From positions 41,606 to 105,605 of the forward strand of contig CAXXGW010000002.1 in NCBI GenBank assembly GCA_963666755.2: 64,000 bases of DNA, read 5' to 3'. The notes below the pieces were generated by a model, which did no database searches, was not told where the DNA came from, and saw only the letters and a program-made list of their open reading frames with translations. This document shows positions 122 to 61,950 of the stretch, one piece after another. The first letter of the stretch is position 1; every line of letters begins with the position of its first letter. A program made the translations under genes and the position numbers. Origin of the DNA: Candidatus Limiplasma sp. Its GTDB lineage: Bacteria > Bacillota > Clostridia > Christensenellales > Aristaeellaceae.

Positions 122-333
122 AAGCCCGCGGCCTACGCCGCGGGCTTCAGCCTGCTGAAAAAGGCCATCTGCTTTGTCGCCTGCACCGGATCAGGGCGGT
201 CACGTACGTTCGTGTACGCTCCCGCCAAGATCCGGTTTGGCTTCGCGCATCTGAACCTTATTGAGCAGGCTGTATACCAGCTTCTTTATAGGTTTGTCAA
301 CGGCCTGAAGCCCGCGACCTACGCCGCGGGCTT
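122..333 (-). mobile_element. family-1 element copy 1 (148-307, reverse orientation), bracketed by a duplicated 26-nt hairpin (122-147 and 308-333)
   Basis: AAGCCCGCG[G/A]CCTACGCCGCGGGCTT occurs at 122-147 and 308-333 (25/26 identical). The 160 bp between them align along their whole length with 10713-10876 and 1487-1640. Confidence 0.6.
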
Positions 334-3402: not shown

Positions 3403-4118
3403 TGAAAACCGTGATGGCGGCTTTCCGGCAATTCCTGAGCGCCATCGGGCGGGACGCGATGCTGGCCGCCTGCCTTGCGATGCCCCTGCCCATGGCCGCG
3501 CTGCTGCGCTGGGGCGTGCCCGCGCTGGAAGGCGCGCTGCTGCCCACGCTGGGCACGGCACACGTACTGGCCCCGTACTACGGGCTGATCGACCTGTTCC
3601 TGTCCATGATGGTCCCGCTGATGTTCTGCTTTGCGGGCGTGATGGTGATACTGGAGGAGCTGGACGACGGCACCGCCCGTTACCTGATGGTGACACCGCT
3701 GGGCCGCAGGGGCTATCTGGTTTCCCGGCTAGTGATCCTGACGGCCCTCTCCGCCGTGTACGATGTGGCGCTGCTGGCCGGGTTCTCGCTTTCGGGCATG
3801 GCGCTGTGGCTGAACGTGCTGTGCGCGCTGGTGAACGCGCTGGTGAGCGTAAGCGTGGCGATGCTGGTGGTAGGACTGGCCAGAAACAAGGTGGAAGGCA
3901 TGGCCCTGATTAAGCTGAGCGGGTTTTTCCTGCTGGGGTATCTGGGCGCGTATTTCCTGCAAACGCCGCTGGCGTATGTGGCAGGGGTACTGCCGGGCTA
4001 CTGGCTGGGGCGCATGGTGTTGGAACAGAACGGGGTCTGGGCATTGCCCGCGGCGGTTGTCGCCTGCGTATGGATCGGGCTGTTCTACCGGCGGTTTGAC
4101 CGGAAAATTTCCTCTTAA
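3399..4118 (+). CDS. ABC-2 type exporter permease subunit 2
   Basis: MMKTVMAAFRQFLSAIG… is a polytopic protein. Its start overlaps the upstream stop and is preceded by GGGAG. The long ORF from 3123 is an out-of-context extension. Confidence 0.7.
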   Translation: MMKTVMAAFRQFLSAIGRDAMLAACLAMPLPMAALLRWGVPALEGALLPTLGTAHVLAPYYGLIDLFLSMMVPLMFCFAGVMVILEELDDGTARYLMVTPLGRRGYLVSRLVILTALSAVYDVALLAGFSLSGMALWLNVLCALVNALVSVSVAMLVVGLARNKVEGMALIKLSGFFLLGYLGAYFLQTPLAYVAGVLPGYWLGRMVLEQNGVWALPAAVVACVWIGLFYRRFDRKISS

Positions 4119-4144
4119 AGCAATAGGGGGAAGCAAACCCCCGT

Positions 4145-4646
4145 CCCCCGCCACAGCGGAAAAAGGGTCAAGGGCAAAAGCCCTTTCGGGGTCTGGCGCC
4201 GGAGGGAAGCGTACGGCCGGCGGCCGCTTCGCCGAAGGCGAAAGCGACCCGCAGGCGGGGCGCGAAACGAGCATGCAAACGGCAGTGCTGCCTGCGAAGC
4301 TAGAACGCCCGGAGTAGGCCCCTAAAATTCCCATACCGCAGCATGCAGCCGCAAGCAAGCGCACAGCCCGAAGGGCTATGAGGCGAACGGTACAGGTGCA
4401 TCACAGAATGAAGCAATCCATCCCGCGCGGCGCTTCCGTCCCTTTGGACGGAAGCGCCGCGTTCGCCTGCCGTTATCCCCCGCCACAGCGGAAAAAGGGT
4501 CAAGGGCGAAAGCCCTTGCGGGGTCTGGCGCCGGAGGGAAGCGTGCGGCCGGTGGCCGCTTCGCAGAAGGCGAAAGCGACCCGCAGGCGGGGCGCGAAAC
4601 GAGCAGGCAAACGGCAGTGCAGCCTGCGAAGCTTGAGCGCCCGGAG
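4145..4646. repeat. B-type mosaic hairpin-module repeats (two ~170-bp units, 332-bp period)
   Basis: 4145-4313 and 4477-4646 are near-identical (CCCCCGCCACAGCGGAAAAAGGGTCAAGGGC…GGCGCCGGAGGGAAGCG…GCGAAAGCGACCCGCAGGCGGGGCGCGAAACGAGC…). A 15-bp perfect hairpin lies between them at ~4426-4461. Related modules occur at 35040-35170 and 58254-58395. Confidence 0.85.
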
Positions 4647-21788: not shown

Positions 21789-22385
21789 GGGTCAAGGGCC
21801 AAGGGCCCTTGTCAGGTTTCCAAAGGGTGAAACCCTTTGGTAGGTTTGGGCGAAGCCCATGCCCTCAGCCGCAGCGAGAGTGCGCAGCGCGCGAACAGCG
21901 CCAAAGGCGCTATGAGGCGCGCGGGGATAGAAATAAGCCGCATGAAAGCAAAAAGGGGGTCAAGGGCCAAGGGCCCTTGTCAGGTTTCCAAAGGGTGAAA
22001 CCCTTTGGTAGGTTTGGGCGAAGCCCATGCCCTCAGCCGCAGCGAGAGTGCGCAGCGCGCGAACAGCGCCGCAGGCGCTATGAGGCGCGCGGGGATAGAA
22101 GCCTGCCTCATGCAAGCGGTAGAAGCTGGTTAGGTGCCATCTCCTTCCCCGTATAGGGCAAAACAAGGCTCTTGAATACAACCAGAAAGGCCGGGGCGAT
22201 CGCCCCGGCCTGTGCTGTTTCACTTTGGAAGGGTTCAGGCCATGAGCCGTACCCGCGCGCCTCATAGCGCCTTCGGCGCTGTTCGCGCGCTACTTTTTTG
22301 GGGTAGATCCGGGGGACGCAGGGGTTTCACCCCTGCACCATGACAAGGGCTTCGCCCTTGACCCCTCTCCGCTGCGGCGGGGGGC
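21789..22385. repeat. A-type mosaic hairpin-module array: 2 tandem 168-bp units, central hairpin, 1 inverted variant unit
   Basis: Units start at 21789 and 21957 (GGGTCAAGGGCC…TTTCCAAAGGGTGAAACCCTTTGG…GCGCGAACAGCGCCnnnnGGCGCTATGAGGCGCGCGGGG). The central GGCCGGGGCGATCGCCCCGGCC is at 22189-22210 and the inverted variant at ~22252-22385. Confidence 0.9.
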
Positions 22386-26059: not shown

Positions 26060-26805
26060 AACCGGGTCAAGGGCCGCTGGCCCTTGTCAGGTTTCCAAAG
26101 GGTGAAACCCTTTGGCCCAGCCGCAGCGAGAGTGCGCAGCGCGCGAACAGCGCCGCAGGCGCTATGAGGCGCGCGGGGAAAGCGCTTTGCTTGCATTATG
26201 GAATGTACCTTGCACCCGCCGCAACGGAACCGGGTCAAGGGCCGCTGGCCCTTGTCAGGTTTCCAAAGGGTGAAACCCTTTGGCCCAGCCGCAGCGAGCG
26301 CGCGCAGCGCGCGAACAGCGCCGCAGGCGCTATGAGGCGCGCGGGGAAAGCGCTTTGCTTGCATTATGGAATGTACCTTGCGCCCGCCGCAGCGGAACCG
26401 GGTCAAGGGCCGCTGGCCCTTGACAGGTTTCCAAAGGGTGAAACCCTTTGGCCCAGCCGCAGCGAGCGCGCGCAGCGCGCGAACAGCGCCGCAGGCGCTA
26501 TGAGGCGCGCGGGGGCGGACACCAGCCCTATGCTAGCGGTAGAAGTCGGTTAGCTACCGTATCCTTCCCCGTATAGGGCGGAACAAGGCTCTTGAATGCA
26601 ACCAACAAGGCCGGGGCGATCGCCCCGGCCTGTGCTATTTGACTTTGGAAGGGTTCAGGCCGTGAGCCGCACCCGCGCGCCTCATAGCGCCTTTGGCGCT
26701 GTTCGCGCGCTACGTTTTTAGGGTGAATCCGGGGGACGCAGGGGTTTCACCCCTGCACCCTGACAAGGGCTTTCGCCCTTGACCCTTTTCCGCTGCGGCG
26801 GGGGC
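26060..26805. repeat. A-type mosaic hairpin-module array: 3 tandem 168-bp units, central hairpin, 1 inverted variant unit
   Basis: Unit starts at 26060, 26228 and 26396 (exact 168-bp period). The central GGCCGGGGCGATCGCCCCGGCC is at 26609-26630 and the inverted variant at ~26672-26805. Confidence 0.9.
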
Positions 26806-35019: not shown

Positions 35020-35660
35020 GCAGGAGGCACTGCCTCCTGCCGGGGCTTGGGCGCCGGAGGGAAGCGTGCGGCCAGTGGCCGCTTCGCCGCAGGCGAAAGC
35101 GACCCGCAGGCGGGGCGTGAAACAAGCAGGCAAACGATAGTGCAGCCTGCGACGTTTGAACGCCCGGGTCAGAACCCCAAACCCCAACGCCGCAGCGTTA
35201 CTCCCAAAGCGAGCGAACAGCGCCGCAGGCGCTATGAGGCGAGCGGCAAACACACATTGCTGTATATTTGTTTACAGTAGCATAGCAGTGCAGGAGGCAG
35301 CGCCTCCTGCCGTTTCTTGTGTGCCCAAGAGCACGCATCCCGCAGGCTAAGCGTAAAGCAAGCATGCAAATGGCAACACAGCCAAAAAGCATGAACGCCC
35401 GGGTCAGAACCCCAAACCCCAACGCCGCAGCGTTACCCCCAAAGCGAGCGAACAGCGCCGCAGGCGCTATGAGGCGAGCGGCAAAACACATTGCTGTGTA
35501 TTGTTAACAGAAGCATAGAAGTGCAGGAGGCAGCGCCTCCTGCCGTACCTTGTGTGTCCAAGAGCACACGTCCCGCAGGCGGGGCGTGAAACGAGCAGGC
35601 AAACGGCAGTGCAGCCTGCGAAGGTTGAACGCCCGCATCAGAACCCCAAACCCCAACGCC
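35020..35660. repeat. mosaic repeat array with GCAGGAGGCAG(C/T)GCCTCCTGC hairpins (three units)
   Basis: The hairpin occurs at 35020-35040, 35290-35310 and 35523-35543, and again at 45770-45790. Units combine a B-type module, CAGAACCCCAAACCCCAACGCC and GCGAGCGAACAGCGCCGCAGGCGCTATGAGGCGAGCGG. Confidence 0.85.
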
Positions 35661-45871: not shown

Positions 45872-48448
45872 TTACAGTTCGTCATCCTGCGGGGCGGGCG
45901 GTTCCGGCGTGCTGTCCTCCGCGTCAAAGGCGGTGGCGGTGCTTTCGCCAATCACGTCGGGGTCCTCACTGGTGATGGCCTCCACCGCTTCCTCCAGCGC
46001 ATCCTCGGTGGCGTCGTCCTCCTGCTCCTGCTCCGCTCGCGCCACGGCGACGATCTTGGTGCCCTCGCCAATGCGCATCAACCGCACGCCCTGCGCGTTG
46101 CGCCCGGTTTCGCGGATGGCCGCCGCCGCCATGCGGATGATGGTGCCGTCGTCGGTTACCAGCAGCACATCCTCGTCCTCACGCACGGCCATCTGGGCCA
46201 CCATCAGGCCGGTCTTGTCGTTCAGCTGCATGGCCTTTACGCCCATGCCGTTACGCCCCTGTTCGCGGTAAGCGTCGGGGTCGGTCAGCTTGCCGTAGCC
46301 GTTTTCGGTAATGCTGAGCACCTTCATGCCCTCGTCCAGCACGCTCATGTCGATCAGCACATCATTCTCACGCAGCTTCATGGCGTGCACGCCGCGTGCC
46401 ATGCGGCCCATGGGGCGCAGGGTGTCCGCTTCGTTAAAGCGGATAGCCTTGCCGTGCCGGCTGCCCAGCAGCAGCGTCTGCGCGCCGTCGGTCAGCTCCA
46501 CGCCGGCCAGCTCGTCCCCTTCGTTCAGGGTCAGGGCGATCAGCCCGGACTTACGCAGGTTGGCAAACTCGGCATACGGGGTCTTTTTAATATAGCCGCC
46601 GCGGGTCATCATCACCACGTTATGGTTATCCAGCTCCCGCGGTACGGGGATCATCGCGGTTACGCGTTCGTCGCCGCCCAGTGCCAGCAGGTTCACAATC
46701 GCGATGCCGCGCGCCGCGCGCCCCGCCTCGGGAATCTGGTAGCACTTAAGCGCGTACACGCGGCCCCGGTTGGTAAAGAAGAGAATCTCCTCATGGGTGT
46801 TGACAATGATCAGCTGCTTGACAAAATCCTCCTCGCGGGTCGCCATGCCGGCCACGCCGCGCCCGCCGCGGTGCTGCGCCCGGTAGGTGGATTTAGGCAG
46901 GCGCTTGATGTAGCCGAAGCTGGTCATGGTCACGACCATGTCGTCCGCCTGGATCAGGTCCTCAATGTCGATTTCACCTTCCAGATGCGTCAGCTCCGTG
47001 CGGCGCTCGTCGGCAAACTGATCGCGGATGGCGCTCATCTCGGTCTTAATCACGCCCAGCAGCAGCTGCTCGTCGTTCAGCAGGCTTTGCAGGTAGGCGA
47101 TCTGCTTTTCCAGCTCGCGGTATTCGTCCATCAGCTTATCGCGCTCCAGCCCCGTCAGGCGGGCCAGGCGCATATCGAGGATCGCCTGCGCCTGCTTATC
47201 GCTGAACTGGAAGCGCTCGATCAGCGCCGCGCGCGCCCCGGCCACATCCGGCGCGGTTTTAATGATCTGCACAATCTCGTCGATATGGTCCAGCGCCTTG
47301 AGCAGACCCTCCAAAATATGGGCGCGGGCCTCGGCCTTATCCAGCTCGTAACGGGTGCGGCGGGTAACGACTTCCTTCTGGTGGCGGATGTAGTGGTAGA
47401 GCATCTCCCGCAGGGTGAGCACCTTGGGTTCGCCATCCACCAGCGCCAGCATGTTCACGCCGAAGGTTTCCTGCAGCTGCGTGTGCTTGTACAGGGTATT
47501 GAGCATCACCTGCGGGTTCACGTCGCGCTTGAGCTCAATGACCACGCGCATGCCGTTGCGGTCGCTCTCATCGCGGATGTCGCTGATGCCGTCCACGCGC
47601 TTTTCGTGCACCAGCTCGGCGATTTTTTCCACCAGCTTGGCCTTGTTGACCATGTAGGGGATTTCGGTTACCACAATGCGCTGGCGGTTTTGCGGCATGG
47701 CCTCAATCTCGGTGCGGGCGCGCATCAGGATGCGACCGCGCCCCGTGTGGTACGCGGCGCGGATGCCGCTGTACCCGAGGATCAGCCCGCCCGTGGGGAA
47801 GTCCGGCCCTTTGATAAAGGTCATCAGATCGTCCACGCTGCAATCGGGGTGGTCGATCATGTACACGCAGCCGTCCACCACCTCGCGCAGGTTATGCGGG
47901 GGGATGTTGGTGGCCATGCCCACGGCAATGCCGCTGGAGCCGTTCACCAGCAGGTTGGGGAAGCGGCTGGGCAGCACCGTGGGCTGCATGAGGGTTTCGT
48001 CGAAGTTGGGGTAGAAATCGACGGTGTCCTTATCGATCTCACCCAGCAGGTGCATGGTCAGCTTGGACATGCGGGCTTCGGTGTAACGCATGGCGGCCGC
48101 GCCGTCGCCGTCCACCGAGCCGAAGTTGCCCTGCCCCTCCACCAGCATATAGCGGATGTTAAAATTCTGCGCCAGGCGCACCATCGCCTCGTAGACGCTG
48201 CTATCGCCGTGGGGGTGGTATTTACCCAGCACATCGCCCACGATGCGGGCGCTCTTGCGGTAAGGCTTGTCGGGGGTCATGCCCAGCTCGTTCATCGCGT
48301 AAAGAATGCGCCGGTGCACGGGCTTGAGGCCGTCGCGCACATCGGGCAGCGCGCGGTTAATAATAACCGCCATCGCATAGCTGATGAAGGAGGTCTTCAT
48401 TTCCCGTTCCAGGTCCGTCGGAATCAGTTTATCGATAATGTCAGACAT
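45872..48448 (-). CDS. gyrA: DNA gyrase subunit A
   Basis: [30 protein letters not shown], the active-site region [10 protein letters not shown] and a C-terminal beta-pinwheel with an acidic tail. Confidence 0.97.
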
Positions 48449-48520
48449 TCGTATGCTCCTTTGCGCACGCGGGGCGGGGTACGGCCGGGGGGCGAACCCC
48501 CGCGGCGGCCCGCGTCGCGC

Positions 48521-50635
<2,115 letters not shown>

Positions 50636-61039: not shown

Positions 61040-61950
61040 CGGGTCAAGGGCCGCTGGCCCTTGCGGGGTCTGGGGCAGCGCCCCAGCGTACCCCGGGCTT
61101 TCTCAAAAAGCGTAGCGAGCGAACAGCGCCGCAGGCGCTATGAGGCGAGCGGGTGCGGCCCACAGCCTGAGCCCTTCCAAAGTTAAATAGCACAGGCCGG
61201 GGCGATCGCCCCGGCCTTGTCTGTTGCATAAAATAGCTATTCTCTCAGTGCGGATAAGGATGCGCCCTTGCCCCGATGCAGCCTGAGCAATCCATGCAGC
61301 CCGCCCCCGCGCGCCTCATAGCGCCTTCGGCGCTGTTCGCGCGCTACGCACTCTCGCTGCGGCTTGGGCCAAAGGGTTTCACCCTTTGGAAACCTGACAA
61401 GGGCCAGCTGCCCTTGACCCATTTCCGCCGCGGCGGGTGCAATGTACCTTCCATAATGCATGCAAAGTGTATTCCCCGCGCGCCTCATAGCGTTTTCGGC
61501 GCTGTTCGCGCGCTACGCACTCTCGCTGCGGCTGGGGCCAAAGGGTTTCACCCTTTGGAAACCTGACAAGGGCCAGCGGCCCTTGACCCGTTTCCGTTGC
61601 GGCGGGTGCAAAGCATCTTCCATAATGCACGCAAAGTGTATTCCCCGCGCGCCTCATAGCGCCTGCGGCGCTGTTCGCGCGCTACGCACTCCCGCTGCAG
61701 CTTGGGCCAAAGGGTTTCACCCTTTGGAAACCTGACGAGGGCCAACGGCCCTTGACCCGTTTCCGCTGCGGCGGGCGCAAAGCACCTTCCATAATGCACG
61801 CAAAGTGCTTTCCCCGCGCGCCTCATAGCGCCTCCGGCGCTGTTCGCGCGCTACGCGCTTCGCTGCGGCTGAAGGCCTTGGGCTTCGCCCAAACCCACCA
61901 AAGGGTTTCACCCTTTGGAAACCGGACAAGGGCCAGCGGCCCTTGACCCA
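61040..61950. repeat. A-type mosaic hairpin-module array, mirror arrangement: 1 variant unit, central hairpin, 4 tandem 169-bp units in reverse orientation
   Basis: The central GGCCGGGGCGATCGCCCCGGCC is at 61195-61216. CCTCATAGCG landmarks fall at 61314, 61483, 61652 and 61821 (exact 169-bp period). Confidence 0.9.

Follow-up and report, generated by a model that had tools for sequence, protein, structure and literature searches.

Introduction

IS1272 and TnSha1, which belong to the IS1182 family of staphylococci, target hairpins of unrelated sequence, mostly terminators, and do so in both orientations (PMC4923244, PMC5678879). The targeting of unrelated terminator hairpins by these two elements was shown independently by Furi et al. 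(PMC4923244). IS1272 deletes its hairpin target through attack at the 3′ feet, without duplicating it, and a cruciform-foot model has been proposed for the reaction (PMC5678879). Duplication of a whole stem-loop was drawn by Wan et al. (2017) as a hypothetical "pathway b" for IS1272, and no detailed data on duplications were published (PMC5678879). IS1272L and TnSha1 also carry a third, tandem repeat of the left end (PMC4923244, PMC5678879). A preference for extragenic palindromes is found among REP-targeting insertion sequences as well, namely IS1397, ISKpn1, ISPpu9/ISPpu10, and IS621 (PMC1525189; PMC12288879).

Here we describe a non-coding element of about 160 bp found in 64,000 nt of DNA from Candidatus Limiplasma sp. 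(the window). It resembles IS1272 and TnSha1 in its use of hairpins as targets and in a 35-nt left arm comparable to their tandem left-end repeat. However, IS1272 deletes the stem-loop, whereas here the stem-loop is duplicated whole by a 160-bp MITE that has no transposase of its own. The REP-targeting insertion sequences each recognize one specific REP (the IS110 family by means of a bridge/seeker RNA), insert inside the palindrome and produce duplications of 0-4 bp; the present element, in contrast, uses unrelated palindromes and each is duplicated in full. The Correia, ERIC, RUP, and BOX MITEs are likewise small, multicopy and non-coding, form long RNA hairpins and reside in 3′ UTRs or operon spacers, but their duplications are the 2-bp TA or short and fixed. 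MITEs, CTAG targeting of the IS5 type and hairpin targeting by IS1272 are already known. Our search of the literature found no description of a family of MITEs whose insertions duplicate entire palindromes of unrelated sequence, nor of homologous elements that are flanked by CTAG in some phyla and by long palindromes in others. A search with the sequences of the termini likewise yielded no publication.

Insertion at Two Hairpins in the Window

At site 1, downstream of the rubredoxin stop codon (89-91), the palindrome AAGCCCGCGGCCTACGCCGCGGGCTT (122-147) recurs as AAGCCCGCGACCTACGCCGCGGGCTT (308-333). The two copies are 25/26 identical as read from the sequence, and each has a 10-bp stem and a 6-nt loop (AAGCCCGCGG-CCTACG-CCGCGGGCTT in the left copy), exactly as an earlier, sequence-only reading of this DNA had reported. 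They enclose the 160-bp element (148-307), which lies in the minus orientation with its right terminus (...CAGCAGGCTG) at 148 and its left terminus (CAGGCCGTTGACAAACC) at 307. The junctions are symmetric and fall 1 nt inside a 28-bp perfect palindrome.

A second full-length copy was found in the plus orientation at 10714-10874 (site 2), and the site 1 element is its reverse complement, with 90.7% identity over 161 nt. The sequence-only reading was right about this relation but had set the limits of the partner at 10713-10876; 10714-10874 is the better delimitation, and the 2 nt that follow it (AT) are possibly a mutated part of the duplication. Its further claims, that the boundaries of the element (CAGGCCGTTGACAAACC ... 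CAGCAGGCTG) match between the two sites and that the target sequence and orientation differ, held on alignment. The site 2 palindrome, CGCCCGCCGCACCCGCG[T/C]GCGGGCGGT, is distinct from that of site 1 and occurs at 10687-10713 and again at 10877-10903 (26/27 identical). Its left copy lies downstream of a solute-binding-protein gene (8301-10628) and is now parted from its T-run, and the right copy is followed by the original TTTTTTT, giving an intrinsic-terminator-like end (10877-10910). Since this insertion is situated between the solute-binding-protein gene and its permease genes, expression of those genes may be rewired. The site 2 insertion is shared by a 97%-identical strain, Ca. Limiplasma sp. 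GCA_034927625.1 (L096).

The third of the three copies in the window occurs at 1516-1640 in the plus orientation and consists of the core only; it is 84% identical to the other cores and has no 35-nt left arm. It is followed by its own terminator-like hairpin and T-run (about 1648-1686) and is missing after azlD in the orthologous locus L099. The copies at 148 and 1640 bracket the azlC-azlD operon (148-1640) with their right termini pointing outward, forming perfect 19-bp inverted repeats at those two positions. A composite transposon carrying azlCD was considered and rejected, as azlCD is syntenic and native in both L098 and L099.

Loci L096 and L098 were reached via homologues of the solute-binding protein and AzlC of the window, for which no exact-protein records were found. 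In L098, whose AzlC is 95% identical, the region reads rubredoxin-stop ... gcAAAGCCCGCGGccccgtgCCGCGGGCTTTgcc ... azlC, with one hairpin (162-190) and no element. Its rubredoxin-azlC spacer (...gcAAAGCCCGCGGccccgtgCCGCGGGCTTTgcctgtgccc...) aligns both to the left flank plus hairpin of the window and to the hairpin plus right flank. We conclude from the one hairpin and the missing element of L098 that the element was inserted and the palindrome duplicated whole; the insertion is shown by the empty and filled alleles, whose boundaries are exact, and these support the reading of the hairpin-element-hairpin at 122-333 as an insertion. L098 is the sole empty allele and a low-coverage metagenome contig of 1.1 kb, and a precise deletion between the 26-bp repeats is formally possible as its origin. 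More distant orthologues (L099-L101, 82%) have no element in the rubredoxin-azlC spacer nor after azlD. A 66%-identity orthologue, L097, was discarded for site comparison, its spacer being different and uninformative.

The same structure could in principle arise with no insertion at all, from dispersed REP-like hairpins, from local duplication or recombination, or from a site-specific recombinase of the Xer or integron type. The 10-6-10 geometry of site 1 is superficially like dif/attC-type sites, and the intergenic regions of a related genome with many copies (EPI_MAG_00242, below) are crowded with small palindromes. Within the window, however, each palindrome is confined to its own insertion site: neither occurs again in the 64 kb, where the next best matches span 16-22 nt at 85-94% identity (E ≥ 0.03) and exact matches elsewhere reach merely 10-13 nt. 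The absence of the window palindromes elsewhere in these 64 kb therefore speaks against a genome-wide REP family, an explanation that the sequence-only reading had named among those that would undo its own. Flanks of the same site match far better than flanks of other sites (flank-to-flank local alignment scores of 23.5 and 24.5 for the two window sites), the palindromes have variable loop lengths and no conserved core, and the empty allele has one hairpin. A recombinase, moreover, would leave hybrid sites rather than two copies of the target. An origin without insertion is, on these grounds, barely credible.

Architecture of the Element

Full-length copies measure 160-163 bp and are crossed by chance ORFs alone, in keeping with the non-coding nature and small size (<300 bp) of MITEs. 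From 5′ to 3′, in the orientation of site 2, the element consists of an outer left terminus (CAGGCCGTTGACAAACC; consensus CAG[G/A]CCG[T/C][T/C]GACAAAC), an 18-nt linker, and a core of ~126 nt (CAGGCTGCTCAAAAAGG ... CCTTTTTCAGCAGGCTG). At site 1 the core covers 148-272 and the 35-nt left arm 273-307, both on the minus strand, with the outer terminal repeat at 291-307. The terminal inverted repeats, CAGGCCGTTGACAAACC and CAGCCTGCTGAAAAAGG, are directly visible and imperfect, the outer termini matching at 11/17 positions in the window and Clostridia and at 13/17 in copies from soil. The feet of the core are themselves near-perfect inverted repeats (CAGCCTGCTCAAAAAGG...CCTTTTTCAGCAGGCTG, 15/17). 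In addition, the left terminus is a diverged direct repeat of the 5′ foot of the core, and the left arm matches the first 35 nt of the core at 15-19/35 positions. As the outer left terminus repeats both the right terminus (inverted) and the 5′ foot of the core, the element has three terminal-repeat units.

Within the core, the outer arms (~25 nt each) are sequence-conserved inverted repeats, and the apical motif is GAGCGTAC-loop-GTACGTGA. The 35-nt left arm is conserved in EPI_MAG_00242, in L084, and in the soil copies. With its terminal inverted repeats, target-site duplication, presence/absence polymorphism and multiple dispersed copies, the element is a MITE, that is, a non-autonomous DNA transposon of about 160 bp.

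Duplicated Palindromes in Other Clostridia

Further copies were sought by a pattern scan of species-representative genomes followed by profile searches. Two more Clostridia assemblies were found to carry the element. One is the Eubacteriales MAG EPI_MAG_00242, in which at least 8 copies are spread over 7 contigs; the other is an Oscillospiraceae MAG (L084). Among the 11 full-length Clostridial copies in the three genomes, 9 have on either side a copy of one palindrome, 18-27 bp long and 0-2 nt from the element ends (two in the window, six in EPI_MAG_00242, and one in L084). The flanking repeats measure 26 bp at site 1 and 27 bp at site 2 of the window, 24 bp in L053, 20 bp in L079, 27 bp in each of L058a and L058b, 22 bp in L073, 18 bp in L042, and 20 bp in L084. 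Pairs of duplicated flanks scored 17.5-27, as against a mean of 5.8 and a maximum of 12 for 106 mismatched flank pairs. The palindromes are unlike each other, sharing no common sequence and having stems of 7-11 bp and loops of variable length, so that palindromes are targeted irrespective of sequence at all nine sites, a behavior like that of the IS1182 family. Comparison of each repeat with the full palindrome placed the junctions ~2 nt or less from the feet of the stem; the duplicated segment is therefore the whole palindrome, and not a piece much shorter than the hairpin. Together with the empty allele, this recurrence argues for the proposal of the sequence-only reading that the insertions were independent and hairpin-targeting rather than chance local duplications.

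The two exceptions, which have no duplicated hairpin, are tandem Clostridial-type copies on a metagenome contig (L127, 707-1052), where the elements are parted by single hairpins with a period of 182 bp. An array of the form hairpin-element-hairpin-element-hairpin with a period of 189 bp was found at L058 6527-6931; all three of its hairpins are one palindrome, and the array is what repeated insertion into the regenerated target, or else unequal recombination, would produce. At L042, the palindrome copies (3809-3828 and 3991-4010) have the same stem and a reverse-complemented loop (GTA vs. TAC), and the flanks align better inverted (18.5) than direct (11). This loop inversion is unexplained by a simple gap-fill duplication and may reflect template switching within the hairpin.

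Core-only copies (1516-1640 in the window, and L071) also have no duplicated hairpin. Their lack of a 5′ arm, along with a right end that is invariant and a left end whose first 4-6 nt vary, raised the question of whether an RNA copy is reverse-transcribed at terminator hairpins, by retro-transposition or in the manner of a group IIC intron, which would account for a precise 3′ end and for 5′-truncated copies. Group IIC introns insert after terminator stem-loops, and thus resemble the present element in homing to terminator hairpins. They are, however, ribozymes and leave the hairpin unduplicated, whereas the element has no intron domains, no Rfam match, and no reverse transcriptase gene nearby. 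The variation at the left end consists of A/G transitions in a terminus of fixed length rather than truncation, and copies point either way with respect to the hairpin and T-run. We consider insertion through an RNA copy extremely improbable.

Relatives in Soil and Groundwater Bacteria

Homologues of the core were detected in genomes of NC10, Methylomirabilia, Rokubacteria, and Deltaproteobacteria, and a scan of metagenomes found the core in 45 contigs from soil, sediment, and groundwater. The homologous left arm of the soil copies, CAGGATGCTGAAAAACC, matches the right terminus at 13/17 positions. Of 17 soil copies with a recognizable arm, nine have CTAG, CTAA, or a one-mismatch version on both sides. 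These CTAG-type flanks often overlap a stop codon, which explains why the soil copies adjoin gene ends.

A 4-bp YTAR duplication is a hallmark of IS5-family transposition. The soil homologues, whose termini are the same as those of the present element, resemble IS5-family elements and MITEs in this respect (CTAG, CTAA or TTAG flanks; 9/17 copies), but the Clostridial copies duplicate palindromes of 18-29 bp, and those of the window copies (26-29 bp) lack YTAR. With a target of 4 bp in the soil copies, one has to suppose that the rule of target choice changed within a single family of elements. No IS5-type transposase linked to the element was found in the loci examined.

Several variants were observed among these relatives. 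Many soil copies (L102, L107, L108, L110, L119, L126, L129, L134, and L144) are 165-210 nt long, ~40-85 nt over the 125-nt core, and the extra length is made up of one to three small hairpins (GGGTACCCACCnnAGGTGGGTC or CACCCATCCnnnnGGATGGGTACCC) nested in the core, which resemble a further mobile palindrome of still smaller size. In a non-coding variant (L141 4277-4470, L124, L004, L091, and L025) the termini alone are common (CAGCCTGC ... GGCAGATGGGCCTTTTTCAGCAGGCTG); the interior of ~190 bp is unrelated, with no ORF inside or beside it. On an NC10 chromosome (L023 412-439), a 28-nt half-element consisting of the right terminus only directly follows a stop codon and nearly fills the 39-bp spacer between two co-oriented genes.

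Fold and Covariation of the Core

The cores of the window copies were predicted to fold into rod-like hairpins, with free energies between -72 and -79.5 kcal/mol and z-scores between -9 and -11. For site 1 the minimum free energy was -72.1 kcal/mol (z = -8.9), vs. -62.7 on the other strand. In an alignment of 17 sequences, 92.8% of cells in the consensus rod were paired, and compensatory double changes occurred in 20 of the 41 core pairs, a number reached by 0/500 shuffles; control structures slid by 1-3 columns gave at most 11 such pairs. Conservation of the hairpin is, accordingly, directly observed. In 44 of 50 distinct copies the sense strand had a more stable fold than the antisense strand; the mean advantage was 9.5 kcal/mol, and in the window copies it was 10-19 kcal/mol. 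Much of this difference comes from G-U pairs at sequence-conserved positions, and therefore the 44/50 copies do not count as independent evidence.

These properties would also be expected of a small-RNA gene cassette, in which the left arm holds a sigma-70 promoter (TTGACA-N18-TATACA), the core is the sRNA, the downstream hairpin is its terminator, and the duplicated terminators are functional. The fold of the sense strand and the covariation agree with such a cassette, the window copies do contain TTGACA, and the downstream hairpin at site 2 retains its T-run. A promoter scan, however, did not call TTGACA-N18-TATACA a promoter in either full-length window copy, and the -35/-10-like bases are unconserved in EPI_MAG_00242, L084, and the soil copies, where the terminal repeat is conserved instead; we therefore rejected a promoter in the left arm. 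Some copies run with the flanking genes and others against them. Searches of Rfam 15 gave no match to the element at the gathering threshold and, at E ≤ 10, noise alone, which fell on the flanking hairpins. A cassette would also leave the duplication of the hairpin unexplained, and it is compatible with transposition rather than an alternative to it. Such a gene is, in our judgment, unlikely. Still, a model of a DNA transposon and nothing more has no need of covariation or strand-asymmetric folding; both are hints that the element may also act in single-stranded form, and a function of the element hairpin as RNA or single-stranded DNA is possible.

Search for a Transposase

A transposase was not found by Pfam analysis of 30 ORFs from the window, nor was an autonomous element with matching ends present in ~146 fetched loci (8-kb pieces of other genomes). 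No element was found in plasmids searched with the Clostridial and soil copies or in a scan of viral contigs, and a pairwise search of all loci for inverted termini 0.4-5 kb apart yielded nothing credible. Duplicated palindromes 60-3500 bp apart were limited to the known sites and to part of L064 with a phage terminase, a candidate that we dismissed. L094 and L059, considered as autonomous copies, proved to be solo-end fragments without a transposase, and around the copies in L023, L141, L025, and L130 there were just ordinary genes. No IS1182 copy was found in pUSA300HOUMR.

Movement of single-stranded DNA by a hairpin-recognizing HUH/Y1 transposase of the IS200/IS605 or RAYT/REPIN type would suit an element that forms a long hairpin, folds differently on its two strands, and has hairpins as targets; like REPs, the soil copies also occupy short intergenic spacers. 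Such systems make no target duplication, insert beside a fixed motif of 4-5 nt, and recognize hairpins of the element itself, not those of a target. The present element, by contrast, has terminal inverted repeats and leaves clear duplications, either of a whole palindrome or of CTAG. Its termini are shared by different phyla, which sets it apart from REPIN-RAYT pairs, and no Y1 gene was present in any locus examined. We regard mobilization by an HUH/Y1 enzyme as very improbable.

A Model for Whole-Palindrome Duplication

We propose, with a probability of roughly 75%, that the MITE is mobilized in trans by a DDE transposase that attaches both ends of the element to the 5′ feet of a palindrome in extruded form, whereby the whole palindrome is duplicated. 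The transposase would be encoded elsewhere and would probably be a DDE enzyme of the IS5/IS1182 kind. Judging from nine sites in three related genomes, its target in the Clostridial lineage would be any GC-rich palindrome, often an intrinsic-terminator hairpin, and the element may pick targets by DNA shape rather than sequence. Extrusion of a cruciform would bring both feet side by side, whatever the length of the stem; the 3′ ends of the element would then join opposite target strands at the 5′ feet or within ~2 nt of them, after which gap repair would copy the whole palindrome to give hairpin-element-hairpin. Because the feet are adjacent in an extruded cruciform, the length of the duplication would vary (18-29 bp) and equal that of the palindrome. 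The type of enzyme, the cruciform intermediate, and the polarity of strand transfer are what we infer in this scheme.

The geometry is the same as in spacer integration by Cas1-Cas2 or in casposon integration, where two staggered strand transfers at the borders of a repeat that is often palindromic, and gap repair, give repeat-insert-repeat. The likeness is in outcome only, since those systems depend on a fixed repeat with a ruler, a leader, and Cas1, and neither cas genes nor a CRISPR array are present at the window locus.

It is unusual for a transposon to choose its target by structure and for the palindrome, not the enzyme, to determine how long the duplication is; in IS1272, which deletes the stem-loop, the element finds its natural counterpart. 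Together with the empty site and the many independent junctions, it provides a set of substrates for asking whether transposases attack extruded cruciforms. Each insertion doubles a terminator and places a hairpin of ~126 nt in a 3′ UTR or operon spacer. The hairpin-insert-hairpin signature can also be used to find similar elements and to avert mis-calls as sRNA genes or assembly duplications. In ISfinder, duplications given for the IS1182 family reach about 60 bp, so its curators may have noticed the phenomenon.

More tentatively, and with considerable doubt, a single transposase lineage and its MITEs might recognize a target by its twofold symmetry or its extruded form instead of its sequence, at the borders of the 4-bp palindrome CTAG in soil bacteria and at the feet of long palindromes in gut Clostridia, multiplying terminator hairpins as they go and perhaps using the rod hairpin as an RNA or single-stranded DNA cofactor. 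If true, the pathway of whole stem-loop duplication, no more than a hypothesis in the case of IS1272, would here be documented in nature for the first time, and duplication would regenerate and multiply terminator hairpins and could build hairpin-element arrays.

Other Features of the Window

The window contains gyrB and gyrA side by side (45872-50632, Pfam), and is therefore taken to be ordinary chromosome. Its sole Rfam match is a tRNA with a long variable arm (15719-15797). Further intergenic repeats occur at 21789-22100, 26060-26514, and 61305-61871, as well as at 4144-4620 and 35157-35550. These families form tandem arrays with units of 168/169 bp made up of clusters of small GC-rich hairpins (e.g., GGGTCAAGGGCCGCTGGCCCTTG and CCAAAGGGTGAAACCCTTTGG), and they also include direct repeats of 332 bp and about 234 bp.
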